Source: an uncultured Candidatus Saccharibacteria bacterium
Lineage (GTDB): Bacteria; Patescibacteriota; Minisyncoccia; Phycocordibacterales; CSBR16-119
Direction of reading: 5' to 3'
DNA length: 64,000 nucleotides
Assembly (NCBI GenBank): GCA_964589975.1
Contig: CAZPVH010000002.1
Coordinates: forward strand, 4,217-68,216
In this document: positions 26,007-62,476 of the stretch, piece by piece
Layout: each line of letters starts with the position of its first letter
Numbering within the stretch: position 1 is the first letter of the stretch
Notes under the pieces: model-generated
Databases searched by the model: none
What the model was told of the DNA's origin: nothing
Seen by the model: the letters and a program-made list of their open reading frames with translations, nothing else
Position numbers and translations under genes: made by a program

Positions 26007-26230
26007 GTTCTTGCCCCCACACCAAATTTAGCTAGGTTAAAATCAATATTTTAGAGGAGAATTTGAGAACTTGGTGTGGGGGTGTAGTAAAACTACCACA
26101 AGCATTATATAATTTCCATACGTGTCCCGTTAGTGACTGATAGTGTAGTGGAAGAACTTATAATGAAAAACCTAGCAATAAAAATTAATTTGGACAGGCC
26201 ACGACAAGACCGAGGTCGGTCACTATTGGG

Positions 26231-26680
26231 ATGACTATGGACATGATGATAATCTTCGGCCTTCTGATCCTGGCGATCATCGTACTCGCTTTTTTCGTCT
26301 TCAAGGCAAACTCTCGCATCAATATGCTGCTCCAAGGCAAAGATGCCAAAAGCCTCGAGGACTCCTTTACCTATCTGGCCGAAGATATAAAACGGATGAA
26401 CGCGAACGAGCTTCTAACAGAAAAGGCTCTGAACAATTTAAACATCAGGCTGAAGAAATCTCTCACGGGTTTCAAAACCGTCCGTTTCAATCCATTCCCC
26501 GAACAAGGCGGCAACCAGAGCTTTGCGATAGCAGTCGTGAACGAAGAAGGCGACGGCTTTATTCTTTCAAGTCTATACTCTCGCGAGAAAACCAGTCTCT
26601 TCGCCAAACCGATCAAAGGCGGCAAATCTGATATCGCTCTGACCGAAGAAGAAACTAAAGCACTTGCTGAAGCAAAATAA
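26231..26680 (+). CDS. DUF4446-like protein, hypothetical
   Basis: 149 aa with an N-terminal TM segment and a conserved-looking FNPFPEQGGNQSFAIAVV core. Confidence 0.4.
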   Translation: MTMDMMIIFGLLILAIIVLAFFVFKANSRINMLLQGKDAKSLEDSFTYLAEDIKRMNANELLTEKALNNLNIRLKKSLTGFKTVRFNPFPEQGGNQSFAIAVVNEEGDGFILSSLYSREKTSLFAKPIKGGKSDIALTEEETKALAEAK

Positions 26681-29067: not shown

Positions 29068-29139
29068 GGCTAGGTGGCGAAGTGGTAACGCAGCGGTCTG
29101 CAAAACCGCCATGCACGGGTTCAATTCCCGTCCTAGCCT
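29068..29139 (+). tRNA. tRNA-Cys (anticodon GCA)
   Basis: GGCTAGGTGGCGAAGTGGTAACGC A GCGGT CTGCAAA ACCGC CATGC ACGGGTTCAATTCCCGT CCTAGCC T. The U73 discriminator is typical of Cys. Confidence 0.85.
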
Positions 29140-29243
29140 CAAGTCGAACTTTTTACACATGCCCGGATGGCGCATAATTTGACTATAGAGGTATACGCGC
29201 GCGACATTTTGGCTAGTAATAGTACATTGGAAATGATTTATTT

Positions 29244-29328
29244 GCCCGGATGGCGGAATTGGTATACGCGCACGACTTAAAATCGTGTCTCGAAAGGGAT
29301 GTGGGTTCGACCCCCACTCCGGGCACCA
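29244..29328 (+). tRNA. tRNA-Leu (anticodon TAA), CCA encoded
   Basis: GCCCGGATGGCGGAATTGGTATACGC G CACGA CTTAAAA TCGTG TCTCGAAAGGGATG TGGGTTCGACCCCCA CTCCGGGC A CCA. Confidence 0.85.
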
Positions 29329-29369
29329 GTCTTTTATTTTATTTTTTTTCTGGTAGAATTTCCCGGTAC

Positions 29370-29442
29370 CCCCTTGTAGCTCAGCTGGTAGAGCAGCTCC
29401 CTCTTAAGGAGAAGGTCCTAGGTTCGATCCCTAGCGAGGGGA
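29370..29442 (+). tRNA. tRNA-Lys (anticodon CTT)
   Basis: CCCCTTGTAGCTCAGCTGGTAGAGC A GCTCC CTCTTAA GGAGA AGGTC CTAGGTTCGATCCCTAG CGAGGGG A. Unusual C1-G72 and one anticodon-stem mismatch. Confidence 0.7.
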
Positions 29443-29466
29443 CAATGCAGTCATAGATAAATGTAT

Positions 29467-29548
29467 GCCCGGGTGGCGAAATTGGTAGACGCGCTAGTCT
29501 TAGGAACTAGTGGAGCAATCCATGGAGGTTCGATTCCTCTCCCGGGCA
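29467..29548 (+). tRNA. tRNA-Leu (anticodon TAG), long variable arm
   Basis: GCCCGGGTGGCGAAATTGGTAGACGC G CTAGT CTTAGGA ACTAG TGGAGCAATCCATG GAGGTTCGATTCCTC TCCCGGGC A. Confidence 0.85.
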
Positions 29549-36086: not shown

Positions 36087-37280
36087 TTAAGTTAATTTAA
36101 TAATTTCTTTGATAATGGTGTTCATGGCAGATATGTCATCTATAGTGCCTTTCAAAACTGTCGCAATCATCCAGGCGCCAAAGATAATGAATGCACCTAT
36201 TATAACGTATAAGAAGTTCTTTTTCGCAACCTCAAGCTTGTCGGTATTTCCCCGAGCTTCGACAAAGAGGAATCCAGAGTATATGGCAAAGAGTATAAGA
36301 AACGGAAGCGCGATTTTCACCATAACCTTAAAAAGCTTCTGAAGGAATGCAACTATATCAATATCGCCGTTCTCACCTAGAGGATTTTGTAAGCTAGAGG
36401 TGAAACTCAAATTCGAGTTATAGTCCCCGCCCGAAGCAAAGAAATCTATACACGGCTGAGTATCGGCAAAAGCCTCCTCATAACAATCTTGCGCTGGATT
36501 GAAATCGTCCGGCGGATTATCGTTTCCACCCTGACCGCCCGGGAAATTTATAGGCTGATTGGTCAAAAATACCTGATCTGTGTTGTCAGAGTTTACAATG
36601 GTAAACGTATATTGTTGTCCTGGAACAATTCCGGAACTTGAAAGCCCGCCGAATGTATGCGAGAAAACTCCGGATCCATTCGTCGACACGTCAGCTGCTG
36701 CAAGCTCTTCACCATCCAGACTATTTATAGTAATGAGTGCGTATCCGTTGTTTAAGGTTAGATCGCCAGAAATTACCAAAAGGGCATTTCCAGATTGAAA
36801 CTGATACTCTGCGGTATTGCCCTCTCCATTATTCCCCCCTTGGCCATTCGACAGATACCAAGATAGTCCGCTACAAATTTGATAATCGCTGTTATTAGGG
36901 TTATTCGGATTGTAAAGATTCATGCCCCCTTGGCTAGCCAAATATGTATTATTAACTAAACAGTATTGAAAGGCGTAACCAGTCGGGTCATCGGGAAGCA
37001 TCATCGTTGTATTTATATAGCCACCGTTAACATTGATCGGCAAATTGTTCACCTGGGCGATCGGAGGATCCATGTCATCTGGATCAGCGAACCCGAGTAG
37101 CGTGTACCCACTAAAGCTATTTATCTCCACCGGCTGCAACTGCACGGTTACAATAAAATCCCCGGTCATCGGAGTAACGTTGATTAGGCCCATGAGCAAA
37201 TCCGCAGCAAATACCGAGCGGGGCACAAGCACCAATATGACTGTGAAAAAAAGTATTGTTTTAAAAATTATTTTTTTCAT
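36087..37280 (-). CDS. secreted protein with an N/G/Q-rich ectodomain fused to the C-terminal pilin-like module, paralog 3
   Basis: Start at MKKIIFKT, giving 398 aa. A signal peptide is followed by a ~300-aa Asn/Gly/Thr-rich domain. The C-terminus IALPFLILFAIYSGFLFVEARGNTDKLEVAKKNFLYVIIGAFIIFGAWMIATVL matches the module of the small paralogs. Confidence 0.45.
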   Translation of the reverse strand: MKKIIFKTILFFTVILVLVPRSVFAADLLMGLINVTPMTGDFIVTVQLQPVEINSFSGYTLLGFADPDDMDPPIAQVNNLPINVNGGYINTTMMLPDDPTGYAFQYCLVNNTYLASQGGMNLYNPNNPNNSDYQICSGLSWYLSNGQGGNNGEGNTAEYQFQSGNALLVISGDLTLNNGYALITINSLDGEELAAADVSTNGSGVFSHTFGGLSSSGIVPGQQYTFTIVNSDNTDQVFLTNQPINFPGGQGGNDNPPDDFNPAQDCYEEAFADTQPCIDFFASGGDYNSNLSFTSSLQNPLGENGDIDIVAFLQKLFKVMVKIALPFLILFAIYSGFLFVEARGNTDKLEVAKKNFLYVIIGAFIIFGAWMIATVLKGTIDDISAMNTIIKEIIKLT

Positions 37281-37281
37281 A

Positions 37282-38196
37282 TTAAATACTGAGCAATGCA
37301 TCCTGAATAGCGCCGGCTACAAGCCAAGCGGCCAATAAAACCATTCCTCCGATAATCGCATAAGTAAATGCTTCTTTCGCCTTCTCGAGCTGACCATCAG
37401 AACCGCGCGCGGTGACAAAGAGAAAACCGGAGTAAACGATAGCCATGGCGATAAGCGGAATGCCGATGGTTAGAATAAAGTCTACGACCTTTTGGAAAAA
37501 TTCCGGAATAGTGTCTATCGTTCCGGCGATCGGATTCGGAAGATTAAGGTCTATGACCGATGGACCATCAACTTGATCGACAATCTGCGGCGGCTCATTT
37601 TCAAAAGTATTACCTACGGTGTTGCCTGGTGCATATACGTCAAGCCCGTTAGTCCCGCCCATATCGTTTCCTAGGGGTATTATGTCTATGAATTCCCAAT
37701 CTGACGGTGCGCCAATAGGCGTGTCATAGGCCACAGAAGTATCAGAGAGATGCAGGTCTGTGTCGTCTTCATTCTCAACTTGCAAGAAGTATTCGCAATC
37801 TGTTCCAGGTACATCTTCACAATTCTCATTACCCGCCCTCATAACAATTGTAAAAGCGCCAGCGCCATCAGTTTCTAGACCACCAATTATAATGAGTTCG
37901 TCATTAAGAGCGTCAATATTAGTCGAGCCAGCCAGAGTGAGGTCCATCTCGACAAGACTGAATTCTAGCCCTATTCCAGAACAATCGGATGTTTGTACGT
38001 CTATATATACAATAGGTCGATCGCTCTCCTGATAAAAGTTCTCAGCGCCCATGCCTCCCTCCTTGTAAGTGCGGAAACCGACGTTGTTGACCGCGCAGGT
38101 CTGCTGCGCCTGGGCGGGCGTCGCCAGAAAATACGCTCCCATGAGGATGGCTGGAAAAATCAGAACCGCGAGATATGATAAAATATTTTTTTTCAT
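37282..38196 (-). CDS. secreted protein with an acidic ectodomain fused to the C-terminal pilin-like module, paralog 2
   Basis: Start at MKKNILSY, giving 305 aa. The C-terminus reads IGIPLIAMAIVYSGFLFVTARGSDGQLEKAKEAFTYAIIGGMVLLAAWLVAGAI. Confidence 0.45.
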   Translation of the reverse strand: MKKNILSYLAVLIFPAILMGAYFLATPAQAQQTCAVNNVGFRTYKEGGMGAENFYQESDRPIVYIDVQTSDCSGIGLEFSLVEMDLTLAGSTNIDALNDELIIIGGLETDGAGAFTIVMRAGNENCEDVPGTDCEYFLQVENEDDTDLHLSDTSVAYDTPIGAPSDWEFIDIIPLGNDMGGTNGLDVYAPGNTVGNTFENEPPQIVDQVDGPSVIDLNLPNPIAGTIDTIPEFFQKVVDFILTIGIPLIAMAIVYSGFLFVTARGSDGQLEKAKEAFTYAIIGGMVLLAAWLVAGAIQDALLSI

Positions 38197-38213
38197 TGTT
38201 TCTACTTTAAATA

Positions 38214-39713
38214 TTACTGCGGCGGCTCGGTGCCAAGGATTCCCCAAAGAGGTCCTTCCGGCGTATAGCCAAAGACGACTAGCACAAGCTTAATTATAAC
38301 CCATGCGAGCAGCGCGACGATGAGACCGATGATAACTTTGCCGATCATTTCTTTGGCCTTGTCTCGAGCGCCGGAAGATCCGCCGGAAGTTAGGAGAAGT
38401 ATTCCGGCCCAAGCGATCACTATGGCCACGAACGGAAAAGCGATGAAGACTATAAGGAAGTTTACAACGCGGTTCACCGTCTCAAGGAACGCGTCAAAGT
38501 CGCAATCGTAATTAGCAGGATCTTCACCGCAAGCAACCAAGCCGTTGTATTCCGGACCTTGCGTTTGAGTATTCCCTCCGCCGCCTCCACCTCCCTGGCT
38601 TGGGGCCGGCATAGTGAATGTATGCGGCGGCGTCAGATCTACTCCGGTAGACTGATTAACTATGGTGTAAGTATACTGCTGCCCGGCCACAAGTCCGGCG
38701 TTAGTCAGGCCGAAAAACAGATGCTCAAAGTAACCGTTTGCTATTTGAGACTGCGGCCCAGTAACTGTCTCTGCAGCCATCATTTCCGTACCGCTCATAT
38801 CTTTTATGATAATTTCGATTGGCAGGTTCGTTATAACGTACCCATTTTGTGTCTCCAAATGTCCCGAAATCAACACACTATTCTCCTGAGGAAAGCTATG
38901 AGTTACGTCGTTTCCTCCTAGCAGGTCCGTCGGAGCAAAACCATAAGTAAACAAGTTTGTACAACCATCGGAAATGTTAGACGATGCGCATTCAAAAATA
39001 GTGAAGTAATAGTCAGTATTCGGCGTCAGGTTCGGGATAGTCGCATTGAAGTTGTAATTCGGACCATTGGCAGACTGGATTGGTAAATAGCCGACCACAT
39101 TGCTATAACTCGCTTGGCCAGCAATTCCGTATCCGTATTCAATTTGAAAATATTTTGTTACGTTAGTTGGAGCAATTGGAATCAAATGGGCTCCACTGAA
39201 AGAAATACTATTATCACTCGAAATGATAGTACCCCAGTTCACTCCGTTAATATATTCCGGGTTGGCATACGTTGTCATGATGTCCCCCTGACCCTCTACT
39301 TGAATGCAAGGAATTTGATACTGGAACCCAACACCGCTCTGACCTTGCGAAATATAGGTTATCCCAGCCTCTGGTGGAGTTTGGTAGAGCCGAAATTCAT
39401 AAGTCTGGCCGCAAGAGAGTCCCGAGATTGGAGCTTGAAAGTTTCCATTTGATTGAATACTTAAGTTTGGATGCTGTGTCTGAGCAGGCTGACCGGCGAT
39501 ATTTGTCTTGAAATAAGCCTGAGCGTTCTGAGGCTGCTGCCCGGGAAGCGGTGTAACTGTGCCCGACACGGTTACCTGGGTAAGAGAGTTTTCAACCACA
39601 TTCGTCAGTGTATATGGAGATGACAGAACAAAAGCTTCGGCTGCATTAGCGCCCACAAAGAGCGCAAATACTACTACAAAGATTGAAAATAATTTTTTAA
39701 ATGATTTCATCAT
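38214..39713 (-). CDS. secreted protein with a large T/Q/N/G-rich ectodomain fused to the C-terminal pilin-like module, paralog 1
   Basis: 499 aa. A signal peptide is followed by a ~400-aa beta-rich ectodomain, a GGGGGGGN linker, and then FLIVFIAFPFVAIVIAWAGILLLTSGGSSGARDKAKEMIGKVIIGLIVALLAWVIIKLV. Confidence 0.45.
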   Translation of the reverse strand: MMKSFKKLFSIFVVVFALFVGANAAEAFVLSSPYTLTNVVENSLTQVTVSGTVTPLPGQQPQNAQAYFKTNIAGQPAQTQHPNLSIQSNGNFQAPISGLSCGQTYEFRLYQTPPEAGITYISQGQSGVGFQYQIPCIQVEGQGDIMTTYANPEYINGVNWGTIISSDNSISFSGAHLIPIAPTNVTKYFQIEYGYGIAGQASYSNVVGYLPIQSANGPNYNFNATIPNLTPNTDYYFTIFECASSNISDGCTNLFTYGFAPTDLLGGNDVTHSFPQENSVLISGHLETQNGYVITNLPIEIIIKDMSGTEMMAAETVTGPQSQIANGYFEHLFFGLTNAGLVAGQQYTYTIVNQSTGVDLTPPHTFTMPAPSQGGGGGGGNTQTQGPEYNGLVACGEDPANYDCDFDAFLETVNRVVNFLIVFIAFPFVAIVIAWAGILLLTSGGSSGARDKAKEMIGKVIIGLIVALLAWVIIKLVLVVFGYTPEGPLWGILGTEPPQ

Positions 39714-41017
39714 TTTTGGAGCAAGAGCTTAAGTTCGGTGCTGGCACTCATAATAGCGTCCTCGGTAGAAGAAAGCCCAGACAAAACATCTTCGAACATC
39801 TGAGAAAATATTTCTGTGGTTTTCTTGTCATCTGGATCTACCCAAGAGCGCGAGCTCAATGCAGCTGCGTAGTAAATCTTTCCGTATTTATTCTGGTTTG
39901 GCGCGGATATTAGATCGCGACGGACCGGAGCAAAGCCTGACGCACCAGCAATTCCAGCAGCCGCTGGACCATTGGCCAGACTGGAGGCAATAGCAAGCGC
40001 CATTTGCGCTTTTGGCGAATTCGACGGGATGGAGAGGGCGTAAACATCCGCGTAAGTGATGACTGTCGGAAGCTCTTTGACCTGCGGCAACTGATGGATG
40101 TCGAAATTAAGATTCGGATTACGCAAGCGAATATTTTCAAACTCGCTAGTAAGGCCAAAATAGATCGCCAGGTCCCCAGAAATAAACTCTTTATCGGAAC
40201 TTTCCATAGACTTGTTCCAGCTATAAACGGATTTCGTTGGGTCGGAGAATTCACCGTAAAAATCCATCGACTGAATCGCCGGCTTTGAAGAAACCGCTGA
40301 CGAAGCGCCAAGGACCGGAGCAAATTTGCCATTTGCCGGATTTCTAGCCACTATTGGATTATCAAGCTGAAGCATAAGAGCAACGAAAATTTCCTTGGCA
40401 TTCTTCACATTCTCAAACTCACCGAGCGCGACACCGGCCTTATCAATCTTCAGAGCCTCGTTAATACTCGTAAGTTTCGGCACATATTCAAACAAGTCGC
40501 TCCAGTACGTCGGGGGTTCGGTGTAGCCTTTTGACTCCAAGATATCCTGGTTGTAATACATAATGAGCGGATCGACGAATATCGGGAAACCCAGGAAGCC
40601 TTGGCCTTTTTTGAAAATTTCCGCAGCTCGGACGAATGAATCGTCATAAGTCCTTTCTGGAAAATATGTAAAAGGAATGTTTATGAGCTTGTCTTCGTAT
40701 TTAAATATTAAATCCTGAGACATAAGGAATGCGTCCGGAAGCCCGCCGAAAGCAAAAGCATTCAATATATCTTCTTCGTACGTTCTGGGATCCTTGGCCA
40801 CATATTTTACCTGCATGCCCGAGCCTTGGGTCGAGAGCGCGATAGCCGGAGCGAGCTTTTTTGAAGGTAGAGTACCCCAAATAGTCAGCGTTGGCGCGGC
40901 CGCGACTTCTTCGGCGCTTTTATTTCCCCCAAGCTTGATCGCGCCGGAAAAAATTAGGACACCAAGAAATACAAAAAAACCAAAAAAGATAAGGATGCCG
41001 ATTTGGAAGCCTTTCAT
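39710..41017 (-). CDS. extracellular solute-binding protein (ABC-transporter SBP family 1-like), first gene of the pilin-like operon
   Basis: ~435 aa with an N-terminal signal anchor and a bilobed SBP-like length and composition. No permease or ATPase is adjacent. Its stop overlaps the start of the next gene (ATGA). Start chosen at MKGFQ, downstream of the leader helix. Confidence 0.5.
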   Translation of the reverse strand: MKGFQIGILIFFGFFVFLGVLIFSGAIKLGGNKSAEEVAAAPTLTIWGTLPSKKLAPAIALSTQGSGMQVKYVAKDPRTYEEDILNAFAFGGLPDAFLMSQDLIFKYEDKLINIPFTYFPERTYDDSFVRAAEIFKKGQGFLGFPIFVDPLIMYYNQDILESKGYTEPPTYWSDLFEYVPKLTSINEALKIDKAGVALGEFENVKNAKEIFVALMLQLDNPIVARNPANGKFAPVLGASSAVSSKPAIQSMDFYGEFSDPTKSVYSWNKSMESSDKEFISGDLAIYFGLTSEFENIRLRNPNLNFDIHQLPQVKELPTVITYADVYALSIPSNSPKAQMALAIASSLANGPAAAGIAGASGFAPVRRDLISAPNQNKYGKIYYAAALSSRSWVDPDDKKTTEIFSQMFEDVLSGLSSTEDAIMSASTELKLLLQK

Positions 41018-41150
41018 CCTGTTAGAAGCAGGTCGCGGTCGCAAAACCACAACATGCTTTATTATTTTTTATAAAAAAACCTTCCTTGATCATTATCATA
41101 GAAATTACAAACCCGTGACCGTGGCTTCTAACGGGATTCATACCACCAAT
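41018..41150 (-). promoter_or_regulatory. conserved leader RNA element (copy 1), with a long-range helix that sequesters the start-codon region
   Basis: mRNA sense reads AUGAAUCCCGUUAGAAGCCACGGUCACG...(~85 nt)...GCGACCGCGACCUGCUUCUAACAGGAUGAAAGG. The paralogous copy upstream of proS shows compensatory changes. Confidence 0.55.
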
Positions 41151-41193
41151 TGTAGAACAAATATGGTGTTTTGGCTAAAAAATATGTGAATTG

Positions 41194-60008: not shown

Positions 60009-61038
60009 ATTGCGTGTCTATAATTATATCCTTGTACTTTGAAAGATTCTCCAGAACCACACCCGTGCCGCGCGCAACCGCGGTGATCGGATCTTCTGCA
60101 ATATGAATCGGCATCTTTACCTTGCGTTCAAGCATCTTGTCGAGACCCTTAATAAGCGCACCACCTCCCACTAGGACAATTCCCCTGTGCATAATGTCGG
60201 CCAGGATTTCTGGCGGTGTGTTCTCCAGAACTTCCCGAATACCTTCGACAAGAGTAGCAATCGACGGCGCCATGGCTTCACGGATATCTTCATCAGTTAC
60301 CATAACAGCGCGCGGAAGTCCGGTGATGAGATCGCGACCACGAACCTCGATCTCTACCGATTCACCAACAGGCAACGCGGAGCCAATTGCAATTTTTATG
60401 TTCTCAGCAGTTTTTTCGCCAATGAGAAGCTTGAACTGATCTTTAAAAAAGGCGCTGATGTCATTGTTTAATTTGTCCCCAGCGATGGTGAGGTTTTTTG
60501 ATTGAACAATACCGCCGAGCGAAATGACAGCAATGTCGGTTGTACCGCCGCCAATGTCGACAATCATCGAACCGACCGGATCGTGAATTGGAAGACGAAT
60601 TCCTACGGCCGCAGCTGTTGGCTCTTCGACAATATAAACCTCGCGCGCTCCGGCATTTTTTGCCGCGTCATAAACAGCTCGCGTTTCGACGCTGGTGATA
60701 CCGGATGGAACGCCAACAACGACGCGCGGACGGAAAAACTTCGGCGACATCTTCTCGATTTTGTTGATGAGGTACGACAGCATTTCTTCGGTCACCTCGA
60801 AGTCAGAAATCACGCCATCGACAAGAGGCCGGACGGCTTTGATATGCGGCGGAGTACGGCCGAGCATCTGCTTTGCCTCAGCGCCAACAGCGACGATGGT
60901 TCCCGTTTTTTTATTTACGGCCACAACCGAAGGCTCAGAAATGACAATTCCTTTCCCCTTCAAATAAACAAGGGTATTCGCAGTACCCAAGTCTATGCCG
61001 ATGTCGTTAGAAAATAATTTATAAAGTCTTTCAAACAT
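59989..61038 (-). CDS. mreB: rod shape-determining protein MreB (actin homolog)
   Basis: IGIDLGTANTLVY phosphate-1 motif, VVDIGGGTTDIAV phosphate-2 motif. 349 aa. Confidence 0.9.
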   Translation of the reverse strand: MFERLYKLFSNDIGIDLGTANTLVYLKGKGIVISEPSVVAVNKKTGTIVAVGAEAKQMLGRTPPHIKAVRPLVDGVISDFEVTEEMLSYLINKIEKMSPKFFRPRVVVGVPSGITSVETRAVYDAAKNAGAREVYIVEEPTAAAVGIRLPIHDPVGSMIVDIGGGTTDIAVISLGGIVQSKNLTIAGDKLNNDISAFFKDQFKLLIGEKTAENIKIAIGSALPVGESVEIEVRGRDLITGLPRAVMVTDEDIREAMAPSIATLVEGIREVLENTPPEILADIMHRGIVLVGGGALIKGLDKMLERKVKMPIHIAEDPITAVARGTGVVLENLSKYKDIIIDTQYESPPR

Positions 61039-62290
61039 AATTTTTAATCTCCCCCATCAAATCCTCCGGCTTGATCATTCGGCCCTTTTCCTCACGCCTT
61101 TCCTTTATCTCAATCATACCTTCGGCGAGCGTTCGCTTACCAACAACAACACGGAGTGGAATGCCGATAAGGTCTGAGTCGGCAAATTTTGTACCGGCGG
61201 AAATATCTCGGTCATCATAAAGTGTTTCAATTCCAGCTGCGGTTAAAGTTTCATAAATTTCTTCTGATTTCGCCTTGACCTCTTCGTCATCAGCGCCGGC
61301 AGAAATAAGGTGCACAGAAAACGGCGAAACTTCTTTCGGCCAGATAAGACCTTTCTCGTCAGACAAAACCTCAGCGATAGTTCCCATAATTCGAGATGGG
61401 CCAATTCCATACGAACCCATGAAAACAAATTCTGATTCTCCTTTCTCATTTTTATAAGAGAGCTCTAGCGGTTCGGAATATTTATAACCAAGGGTAAAAA
61501 TATTTCCGACTTCGACAGCCTTATGCTCAACAAGCTTGTCGCGAGTAAGTCCGAGGTTCGTTAAAACTTCATCATTCAGAACCTCCTGATTAACCGCGAG
61601 CCCAGATCCTTCGTCGACATAGATTACATCTTCGCCGGCGCTCGTGACAGTCTGGAATTCATGTGAGTACTTTGAAAAAGTACCACCTGAAGCGAACGTC
61701 ATGTACGTCAGGTGGCCGATACCAAGCCGGTCATACGCGCGCTTGTACGCCTTCTGAACTTCTTTGTAAAATGCTTGGTGCTCTTCTTCGTTCTTCGCGA
61801 ACGAATACATATCCTTCATCAGGAATTCACGTCCGCGCATGACGCCAGACTTGGCGCGTAGTTCATTTCGAAATTTTACTTGGATCTGATAAGCGGCAAC
61901 CGGAAGATCTTTGTACGATGAAATGTGGTTCTTCAAAATATCCGTAAGAGGTTCCTCGTGCGTGAAGCCAAGTCCAAGCTCTGAATCATTTTTGAGTTTC
62001 GTCTTGAACCAATTGTCGACGACAGCGTCATCCCAGCGACCAGACTTTTGCCAAACTTCCGGGTCCTGGAGAGCTGTGAGTTTCATTTCAAGTGCTCCGA
62101 GCTTATTCATCTCGTCTCGAATGATGCCACAAATCTTGTTCATCACTCGAAGTCCCAGCGGGAGATACGCATACACGCCAGCCATTTCTTTATGCACAAA
62201 TCCGGCCCGGATCAGAAGTTCGGCGTTCTTTGACGCCTCATCCGCAGGAGCTTCTTTCCTAGTTTTAGTGAAGAGTTTTGTTTGTCTCAT
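61031..62290 (-). CDS. proS: prolyl-tRNA synthetase (short bacterial form without editing insertion)
   Basis: Class II motifs and the ProRS N-terminal pattern (RAGFVHKEMAGVYAYLPLGLRVMNKI...FRNELRAKSGVMRGREFLMKD). Start chosen at MRQTKLF. The ORF track adds 13 codons that fall in the leader helix. Confidence 0.85.
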   Translation of the reverse strand: MRQTKLFTKTRKEAPADEASKNAELLIRAGFVHKEMAGVYAYLPLGLRVMNKICGIIRDEMNKLGALEMKLTALQDPEVWQKSGRWDDAVVDNWFKTKLKNDSELGLGFTHEEPLTDILKNHISSYKDLPVAAYQIQVKFRNELRAKSGVMRGREFLMKDMYSFAKNEEEHQAFYKEVQKAYKRAYDRLGIGHLTYMTFASGGTFSKYSHEFQTVTSAGEDVIYVDEGSGLAVNQEVLNDEVLTNLGLTRDKLVEHKAVEVGNIFTLGYKYSEPLELSYKNEKGESEFVFMGSYGIGPSRIMGTIAEVLSDEKGLIWPKEVSPFSVHLISAGADDEEVKAKSEEIYETLTAAGIETLYDDRDISAGTKFADSDLIGIPLRVVVGKRTLAEGMIEIKERREEKGRMIKPEDLMGEIKNYV

Positions 62291-62420
62291 CCCGTTAGAA
62301 ACAGGTCGCGGTATTTCCGCCATCTGCAAGTTTAATGTTGATAATCTTAGGTTAATCGAGTGCCTTGCCTATCCCGTCTTCGTGACCGCGGTTTCTAACG
62401 GGACTCATGGGCTATATATT
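62291..62420 (-). promoter_or_regulatory. conserved leader RNA element (copy 2) upstream of proS
   Basis: mRNA sense reads AUGAGUCCCGUUAGAAACCGCGGUCACG...(~75 nt)...AUACCGCGACCUGUUUCUAACGGGAUGAGAC. Both arms match the copy at 41018-41150. Confidence 0.55.
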
Positions 62421-62447
62421 ACTCGGATTTAAGGTTTTTTCCTATGC

Positions 62448-62476
62448 TTGACATTATAGCCTAAATATGGTATTAT
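62448..62476 (+). promoter_or_regulatory. sigma70-type promoter TTGACA-N17-TATTAT
   Basis: Read from the sequence, 20 nt upstream of the 62496 ORF. Confidence 0.5.

Follow-up and report, generated by a model that had tools for sequence, protein, structure and literature searches.

Mycobacterial MIRUs are apparently mobile repeats that insert at start codons, where their internal open reading frame (ORF) is coupled to the gene through a -4 nt overlap with minimal effect on expression (PMC12548453). [quoted passage not shown] REPINs are hairpin-forming inverted doublets with a variable spacer that occur in many copies and persist long-term with no internal transposase (PMC3116915, PMC3337134), and the Rickettsia palindromic elements (RPEs) are mobile palindromes of reduced genomes, tolerated in expressed genes with translation intact (PMC10969869). 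In translational coupling (MS2 coat/lysis, rpmI-rplT, ATGA overlaps) an upstream ribosome opens a masked start, with the stop and the start a few nt apart (PMC12548453, PMC6728339); unfolding and termination-reinitiation are its two accepted modes (PMC12548453). Here we describe an element that lies directly 5′ of proS, the prolyl-tRNA synthetase gene, in a 64,000-nt stretch of an uncultured Candidatus Saccharibacteria bacterium (contig CAZPVH010000002.1, positions 4,217 to 68,216; the window, hereafter). It is probably a copy of a short (about 105-125 bp), non-coding, hairpin-forming, MITE-like mobile family, abundant in Patescibacteria (the Candidate Phyla Radiation, CPR) and kept harmless by translational coupling. 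Literature searches returned nothing relevant on its terminal sequences, or on MITE, REPIN or inverted-repeat elements in Patescibacteria, CPR, Saccharibacteria or Parcubacteria. A 2024 review of prokaryotic MITEs nowhere has the phrase "start codon", and in its relevant passage Patescibacteria are not among the MITE-bearing taxa.

The first-pass annotation of the window had noticed the same two-armed element 5′ of proS (copy 1) and of a solute-binding protein (SBP)/pilin-like operon (copy 2), and both arms are where it placed them. Each arm pattern has exactly two matches in the 64 kb, against 0.00-0.02 expected from shuffles, and the two copies have nothing in common in the ~70-75 nt that separate the arms. 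When a covariance model of 49 family members was run on the window without filters, a kind of search that the annotation had recommended, it matched exactly three copies, the third of which had been missed. The model scores the sense strand well above the antisense strand (94 versus 46 bits and 86 versus 29 bits).

That the element was inserted is seen at proS. The ProRS orthologues (83-87% identity, synteny proS-mreB-mreC-tgt) read ...gagtaatatatagccc-ATGAG-ACAAACAAAAC without interruption, while the window reads ...gagtaatatatagccc-ATGAG-[TCCCG...CGGG-ATGAG]-ACAAACAAAAC at the same site. Precise empty sites were found in three orthologous lineages (...tatagcccATGAGACAAAC, versus ATGAG[114 bp]TGAGACAAAC in the window), so that ~114 bp and a duplicated TGAG (or ATGAG) have been added. 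On the minus strand the proS leader runs ATGAG-TCCCGTTAGAAAC-CGCGGTCACG ... ACCGCG-ACCT-GTTTCTAACGGGA-TGAG; its final A (62290), the last base of the element, is the A of the functional proS ATG, and the TGAG comes from the duplication.

The SBP site is likewise empty (ttctataatagaagat-ATGAAAGG) in relatives at 74% identity (L129/L130). A relative at 81% (L128) has an orthologous element there, its arms identical at 31/31 and 22/23 positions and its interior diverged, and a relative at 79% (L127) carries a different subfamily at the very same position. In copies found outside the scan-pattern selection described below, the two flanks match as TGAA, TGAG or TGGA, each at the ATG of a same-strand gene, and the base before the element correlates with the base after ATGA (Fisher p 1e-7). 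On these comparisons the flanking repeat is a true target-site duplication, TGAN, of 4-5 bp. The integration sequence is (A)TGAN, overwhelmingly at start codons, and the termini are TCCCGTTAGA...TCTAACGGGA; among the copies listed, the 5′ flank is ATGA in 87 of 127 and GTGA in 7. Since the terminal A joins the duplicated TG, an ATG is re-created before an untouched coding sequence, and the old start is left ~118 nt upstream. The element integrates as DNA with duplication at start codons, rebuilds the ATG and has no gene specificity.

A species-representative genome collection was scanned with the pattern TCCCGTTAGNNNC-N70-100-GNNNCTAWYRGGATGA, which matched at least 119 genome stretches against ~4 expected by chance (a rough estimate); family counts in this paper (copies, Pfam families, flanks) are among the scan matches listed. 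Nearly all hosts among these are Patescibacteria, including Saccharibacteria, Paceibacterota groups, Levy-, Kerfeld- and Moranbacteria and others. Beyond the window and the scan pattern, 34 more copies lie in roughly 0.9 Mb of flanking DNA, and the sequences examined suggest a density of roughly 40 copies per Mb, with 3 in the 64-kb window. Tandem arrays have one ATGAA duplication in common, and flanks hold fragments of earlier copies. The pattern had no match in 2.9 million viral contigs. Variant termini with compensated changes inside an otherwise invariant 9-mer (TCCCGATAG/CTATCGGGA and TCACGTTAG/CTAACGTGA) occur in L072 (3070-3189, 7853-7973), L030 (2264-2344) and L079 (6141-6414), and a 274-bp form of the element was also seen, so the family extends beyond what the scan pattern could catch.

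Some element-bearing contigs belong to metagenome-assembled genomes labelled Omnitrophota, Planctomycetia/Pirellulales, Limnocylindrales or Gammaproteobacteria (L101, L103, L085, L090, L065, L023, L073, L104); the L090 contig encodes a molybdopterin oxidoreductase. These labels may reflect mis-binning, mislabelling or a family range that extends past CPR.

The element consists of a 13-bp terminal inverted repeat (TCCCGTTAGAnnC...GnnTCTAACGGGA), a 4-nt bulge, a 6-bp GC helix and a variable A-rich loop (39% A and 29% U on the sense strand), with lengths of 73-167 nt (median 118). The long-range helix abutting the start codon that the first-pass annotation had proposed forms in all minimum-free-energy (MFE) folds of the leaders (z = -3.1 and -4.5) and ends at the A of AUG. 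This closing helix, P1, has 13 bp, with a fourteenth should the flanking N be paired to the U of AUG; each of its positions 1-13 is Watson-Crick paired in 125-137 of 137 copies, and positions 11-13 covary. The bulge, ACCU or AUCU, is on the 3′ strand, and P2, of 6 bp, is GC-rich with three covarying pairs. Other subfamilies have a local GC hairpin followed by CUG in place of P2, the hairpin being at the gene-proximal end only. The compensatory difference noticed earlier between copy 1 (GAAAC/GUUUC) and copy 2 (GAAGC/GCUUC) is present, and copy 3 adds two compensatory pairs (GUGAC/GUCAC). In the family alignment (A2) 99.4% of cells pair and 43 cells are double-compensated, against 12 in shuffles; no consensus helices beyond P1 and P2 appear in it, and the interior is unconserved. 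Among P2 pairs 16 wobbles were counted versus 1 A.C, an asymmetry that favours the sense strand. The covariation had been taken to argue for an RNA helix rather than a peptide. It is real, and no conserved peptide accompanies it, but it is equally expected of the terminal inverted repeats of a mobile hairpin.

In one subfamily (e.g. L011, 7279-7404) P2 and the bulge read CGCGATCGC / GATCGCGATCT, with a palindrome GCGATCGC and a GAYC..GAYC direct repeat, and the bulge base covaries with P2 (GACCGCG-ACCT versus GATCGCG-ATCT), which hints at an alternative register or a possible protein or methylase site. At the SBP site the fourth P1 pair (C-G) is broken in both orthologous copies, by an A in the window (41020) and by a T in L128; the helix beside the AUG may have been weakened independently in each, or the terminus inactivated.

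The ORF that starts at the 3′-end ATG has a median length of 231 aa, compared with 22 aa for random ATGA. The 136 genes 3′ of the element represent 208 Pfam families in more than 100 other genomes, with at most five members per family, and include those for ribosomal proteins L17, L18 and L29, RpoA, DNA ligase, FtsW and aminoacyl-tRNA synthetases. These genes form no regulon, and even essential ones tolerate the element. The first-pass annotation had advised a look at which other genes carry the element, having proposed a ligand-, tRNA- or temperature-responsive riboregulator that co-controls proS and the pilin-like operon. A conserved helix does abut the start codon in both leaders, yet the orthologous leaders are empty, the downstream genes have no functional coherence, the target is duplicated, and no further helices are conserved; nothing in the unconserved interior points to a core that senses a ligand or tRNA. 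Rfam searches, at the gathering score over the whole window and at E up to 10 on both copies and three related loci, returned only tRNAs and chance matches, with no T-box among them, as had been expected from the missing T-box consensus. We consider this riboregulator very improbable. A gene-specific leader or riboswitch in general was rejected on the same absence from the proS and SBP leaders, the unconserved interior and the small number of members per downstream family.

Another possibility is that the element has been domesticated as a cis-regulatory module, serving as an RNase III site, a 5′ stabiliser or an RNA thermometer. P1 and P2 together make about two helical turns of double-stranded RNA beside the AUG, the arms are conserved in situ, RNase III cleaves Correia inverted repeats in mRNA (PMC10969869) and is one of the factors that CPR bacteria have kept (PMC12641178). 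The functional incoherence of the downstream genes and the close relatives that lack the element speak against such a role, to which we give only a slim chance.

Orientation relative to the downstream gene is 95:5 despite the symmetric termini. Inverted repeats that bracket a 70-90 bp AT-rich segment 5′ of genes, together with the five copies in the opposite orientation, are what an invertible promoter switch (inverton) would offer; orientations are not mixed, however, promoter-like scores for an internal outward promoter are equal in sense and antisense with no fixed position, and target duplication and empty sites indicate transposition, which leaves the inverton scarcely credible. GC skew has a single sign across the window, where copies lie on both strands, and neighbouring opposite-strand elements each appear to follow their own gene (read from the listing, uncounted); orientation therefore seems tied to the gene and not to replication. 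An orientation set by replication strand is, on the same skew and strand distribution, unlikely.

Some of these properties would also suit a REPIN- or IS200/IS605-like single-strand DNA element, moved as a hairpin by an HUH/tyrosine (RAYT-like) transposase instead of a DDE enzyme. Pairing rather than sequence is kept at P1 positions 11-13 and in P2, a subterminal GC hairpin stands beside one end only, the orientation bias is strong, and the lack of a linked transposase fits a single-copy domesticated enzyme. Against this, the flanks differ from target to target (TGAA, TGAG, TGGA, TGAT) and are the same at the two ends, a true duplication of the kind that HUH elements do not make, and the opposite-strand elements within a few kb that follow their own genes (again uncounted) indicate that replication strand appears not to set orientation. 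We regard movement of this kind as rather unlikely. Membership of REPIN/RAYT was rejected for the presence of duplications, and derivation from IS200/IS605 for flanking repeats that change with the target and match on both sides; the subterminal hairpin is at the gene-proximal end only.

The sequences around the old start bear on how the rebuilt one may be used. TAnnnT stands 5-9 nt 5′ of the old ATG in 44 of 135 copies, with a peak at 6-7 nt, and this leaderless-type arrangement is shared by all three window copies and also by the empty orthologous sites; a Shine-Dalgarno-like motif is found in only 9 of 135 element flanks. A TAATAT-type arrangement directly precedes the ATG in proS relatives that lack the element, and this promoter-like spacing implies a leaderless proS mRNA. 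Elsewhere the element splits the ATGA overlap of two real genes (19 of 137), for example between SecA and MYG1, or between a molybdopterin oxidoreductase and its Fe-S partner. As a separate observation, genes of this lineage (L121-L124, L129/L130; window 62409-62421, 41142-41154, 26108-26124) have a TATAAT-like box exactly 7 nt 5′ of the ATG and no Shine-Dalgarno motif, which suggests that leaderless or Shine-Dalgarno-independent initiation may be common in these Patescibacteria.

The right terminus, ...UCUAACGGG-AUGA, supplies UAA in one frame, UGA in the second and AUG in the third. Across the interior the frame of the old ATG is free of stops in 43 of 103 copies, versus 39 of 206 for the other two frames (p 3e-5). 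In elements of length 3n, where the upstream ORF (uORF) ends at UAA 4 nt before the AUG, the old-ATG frame is open in 29 of 42 and the others in 12 of 84 (p 2e-9); when the interiors of 3n elements were shuffled, 6.2 were open on average and never more than 15. For length 3n+1, where the uORF ends at a UGA overlapping the AUG, the counts are 14 of 39 and 16 of 78 (p 0.11), and for 3n+2, where the frame would fuse to the gene, they are 0 of 22 and 11 of 44 (p 0.012). Full-length uORFs end in a UGA overlapping the ATG in 13 copies and in a UAA 4 nt upstream in 28 (n = 103). No conserved leader peptide is encoded; the uORF peptides have only the arm-encoded MNPVR in common, and a conserved-peptide reading was ruled out by these unrelated peptides and by copy 3, which has no ATG. 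From the frame-specific open uORFs, ribosomes appear to use the old AUG, and selection appears to favour termination beside the rebuilt AUG and to disfavour N-terminal fusions.

We propose that the termini pair in the mRNA (P1 of 13-14 bp, the 4-nt bulge, the 6-bp P2 and the large loop rich in A), so placed that the foot of the hairpin would join the old and new start codons and bury the bases just 5′ of the new AUG. Ribosomes would reach the old start where it forms a leaderless 5′ end, or through coupling with a gene upstream whose end lies in an ATGA overlap, and those translating into the element, or finishing the upstream gene at UGA, would melt P1. In ~40% of copies they would read a uORF of roughly 40 codons to the UAA or UGA of the right terminus, 4 nt from the new AUG or overlapping it, and initiation there would follow by unfolding or re-initiation. 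Initiation at the new AUG would then be coupled to the old, making the insertion close to neutral for expression. The earlier suggestion that the helix occludes the start and acts in translational control survives in part, as the helix probably does matter for translation, but no regulator is common to the two genes.

The same data may be read as a purely selfish MITE, with the hairpin, the rebuilt ATG and the open uORFs as by-products of termini and purifying selection, and a gene that simply tolerates the hairpin. Mobility, target duplication and lack of gene specificity are all observed, sense and antisense fold equally well, and in 60% of copies the uORF frame is closed early by a stop. 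The frame-specific excess of uORFs, with none where a fusion would arise, is hard to obtain without ribosomes at the old AUG; the 95:5 orientation would not follow from symmetric termini, and the orthologous SBP-site arms have stayed nearly identical while the interior diverged. We therefore hold pure selfishness to be unlikely.

Several points nonetheless weigh against a mobile hairpin made harmless by coupling. P1 positions 10-13 have 4 wobbles versus 15 A.C, opposite to the P2 result on strand-specific (RNA) pairing, and the MFE of the whole element is equal in sense and antisense. A full-length uORF is present in only ~40% of copies; copy 1 stops after 18 codons and copy 3 is without an upstream ATG. 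The translation step is itself read from sequence. A search of ~1 Mb of flanking DNA turned up neither an autonomous element nor a transposase with these termini, no IS-sized terminus pairs and hardly any solo ends; IS1380, IS701 or IS5-type parents were considered in view of the 4-5 bp duplication. Near-perfect complementarity of the arms, with termini so conserved across classes, is unusual for DDE-type MITEs, and the start-codon bias could reflect purifying selection, not targeting.

More tentatively, start codons may be targeted by the mechanism, beyond the survival of harmless insertions. These would then be superphylum-wide, still active "translation-transparent" hairpins, mobilised by a conserved CPR enzyme, whose termini evolved as a portable coupling device: a rebuilt ATG, stops in the two other frames and a closing helix tying the new start to ribosomes at the old. 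The cue might be an ATGA standing at the +1 position of a leaderless promoter, or a gene overlap of the ATGA type. If this were true, not even the genes for ribosomal proteins and tRNA synthetases would be closed to the element in genomes of roughly 1 Mb.

The three copies of the window and the genes behind them are given in Table 1. Copy 3 supplies, with its last A, the first base of the ATG of a DUF4446 gene, and its 3′ flank is TGAC; the 5′ flank has decayed (ACGTG), with loss of the upstream ATG, and a TATAAT remains at 26108-26113.

Table 1. Features of the three element copies in the window (positions 1 to 64,000)
Feature	Position	Strand	Basis
Copy 1, whole element (114 nt), TCCCGTTAG...CTAACGGGA	62290..62403	-	sequence; boundaries from empty orthologous sites L121-L124; covariance model 86.5 bits
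Copy 1, 5′ target copy ATGAG = original proS start codon	62404..62408	-	sequence and empty sites
Copy 1, 3′ target copy ATGAG = functional proS start (ATG 62290-62288)	62286..62290	-	sequence, orthologues
Copy 1, 5′ arm ATGAGTCCCGTTAGAAACCGCGGTCACG	from 62408	-	
Copy 1, 3′ arm ACCGCGACCTGTTTCTAACGGGATGA	ending in proS ATG (62290-62288)	-	
Copy 1, left terminal inverted repeat, P1 5′ strand (TCCCGTTAGAAAC)	62391..62403	-	folds, family alignment
Copy 1, right terminal inverted repeat, P1 3′ strand (GTTTCTAACGGGA)	62290..62302	-	folds, family alignment
Copy 1, P2 5′ strand (CGCGGT)	62385..62390	-	family alignment
Copy 1, P2 3′ strand ACCGCG (62312-62307), then 4-nt bulge ACCT (62306-62303)	62303..62312	-	sequence, family alignment
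Copy 1, 18-codon uORF opened by old proS ATG	62408-62352	-	read from sequence
-10-like hexamer TAATAT, 7 nt 5′ of old proS start	62416..62421	-	sequence only
proS, prolyl-tRNA synthetase, 419 aa, gene behind copy 1	61031..62290	-	
Copy 2, whole element (120 nt)	41017..41136	-	sequence, folds, SBP-site comparison; covariance model 94.4 bits
Copy 2, arms	at 41141 (5′); 41039-41014 (3′)	-	
Copy 2, P1 (one C.A mismatch)	41136-41124 with 41029-41017	-	
Copy 2, P2	41123-41118 with 41039-41034	-	
Copy 2, bulge ACCT	41033-41030	-	
Copy 2, 5′ target copy ATGAA (old start); TACAAT (41154-41149) and 7 nt before it	41137..41141	-	
Copy 2, 39-codon uORF, old ATG through entire element, stop TAA (41024-41022), 4 nt before real ATG (41017-41015)	41022..41141	-	
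Gene behind copy 2, for a solute-binding protein (SBP_bac_8, 435 aa), at the head of the T4SS-pilin-like operon	39710..41017	-	
Copy 3 (107 nt, diverged), TCCCGTTAGTGAC...GTCACTATTGGGA	26125..26231	+	loose search; covariance model 26.4 bits, E 1.5e-4
DUF4446 gene behind copy 3	26231-26680	+	

Gene prediction is misled by the element. Calls of 430/432 and 446 aa in the ORF listing and public annotation read through the 3′ arm, where the orthologues have 418-419 and 433-436 aa, which bears out the earlier remark that the apparently conserved N-termini are artefacts. The public calls (P0001, 430 aa; P0121, 446 aa) have false 11-aa N-termini, MAEIPRPVSNG- and VVLRPRPASNR- (62291-62329 and 41018-41050, minus strand), and the same mis-start is likely wherever the element sits. 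Assembly may be affected too: one Logan short-read contig from the source sample (L126) breaks off at copy 2 (~41017-41150), which would fit a dispersed repeat. A second contig, L120, terminates 7 nt before proS; it is from a different sample, in which the proS site is empty (L121).

Three large proteins are encoded 3′ of the SBP gene (36087-39713, minus strand), each with a C-terminal T4SS_pilin (PF18895) domain and one with a faint fibronectin type III/purple-acid-phosphatase-N stretch; this is a conserved CPR surface-structure operon that is found also in L127 and L129. A promoter-like site near consensus (TTGACA-17-TATTAT with TG, 62448-62476, plus strand) faces the divergent rpsB-side genes, away from proS. 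The window has nine tRNA genes, four of them clustered at 29068-29548 (plus strand).

CPR/Patescibacteria genomes are among the smallest and most streamlined known, yet here a mobile element stands before essential genes. Its design would make insertion nearly harmless, with the start rebuilt, fusions blocked and translation coupled to the original signals, as in a natural portable coupling cassette. For annotation it means systematic false 11-aa N-terminal extensions in public gene calls, and for assembly the one case above suggests that the element breaks short-read assemblies. It also offers a handle on leaderless or Shine-Dalgarno-free initiation in CPR, a strain-typing marker and a search image for the cognate transposase.

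By structure the element fits the definition of a MITE except for a known parent insertion sequence: it is small, has no transposase ORF and only short non-conserved uORFs, and shows terminal inverted repeats, target duplication, dispersed copies and presence/absence at two orthologous loci. Integron attC sites were considered and rejected, as they expect RYYYAAC ... GTTRRRY 3′ of a cassette ORF and the element has GTTAGAR ... YTCTAAC at gene 5′ ends. With Correia/NEMIS/ERIC it shares size class, terminal inverted repeats, a short target duplication and many gene-adjacent copies. Correia elements have a TA duplication, carry promoters and IHF sites and are not known to be bound to start codons, whereas our family inserts at (A)TGAN of the start codon, its terminus restores ATG and gives the remaining two frames their stops, and promoter-like scoring yielded no signal. 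A conserved hairpin is shared with REPINs; these are extragenic and are not known to be flanked by target duplications, in contrast to the start-codon position and clear duplications seen here. RPEs lie in frame inside coding regions and add a peptide; our family avoids fusing in frame (0/22) and leaves the protein as it was.

Conceptually the mycobacterial MIRU comes closest, although architecture and host differ and the sequence probably does too. Like a MIRU, the element has a start-codon position and an internal ORF coupled to the gene, with frame-specific enrichment; the uORF ends at ATGA (13 copies) or at a UAA 4 nt upstream (28 copies). Actinobacterial MIRUs are direct repeats, frequently in tandem, that are not known to have long terminal inverted repeats or a hairpin closing the unit, and by that description are set apart from 13-bp inverted termini, TGAN duplication, a variable interior and Patescibacteria hosts. 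Classical translational coupling, finally, is fixed in particular operons, whereas here it would be carried to new genes by a transposable cassette.

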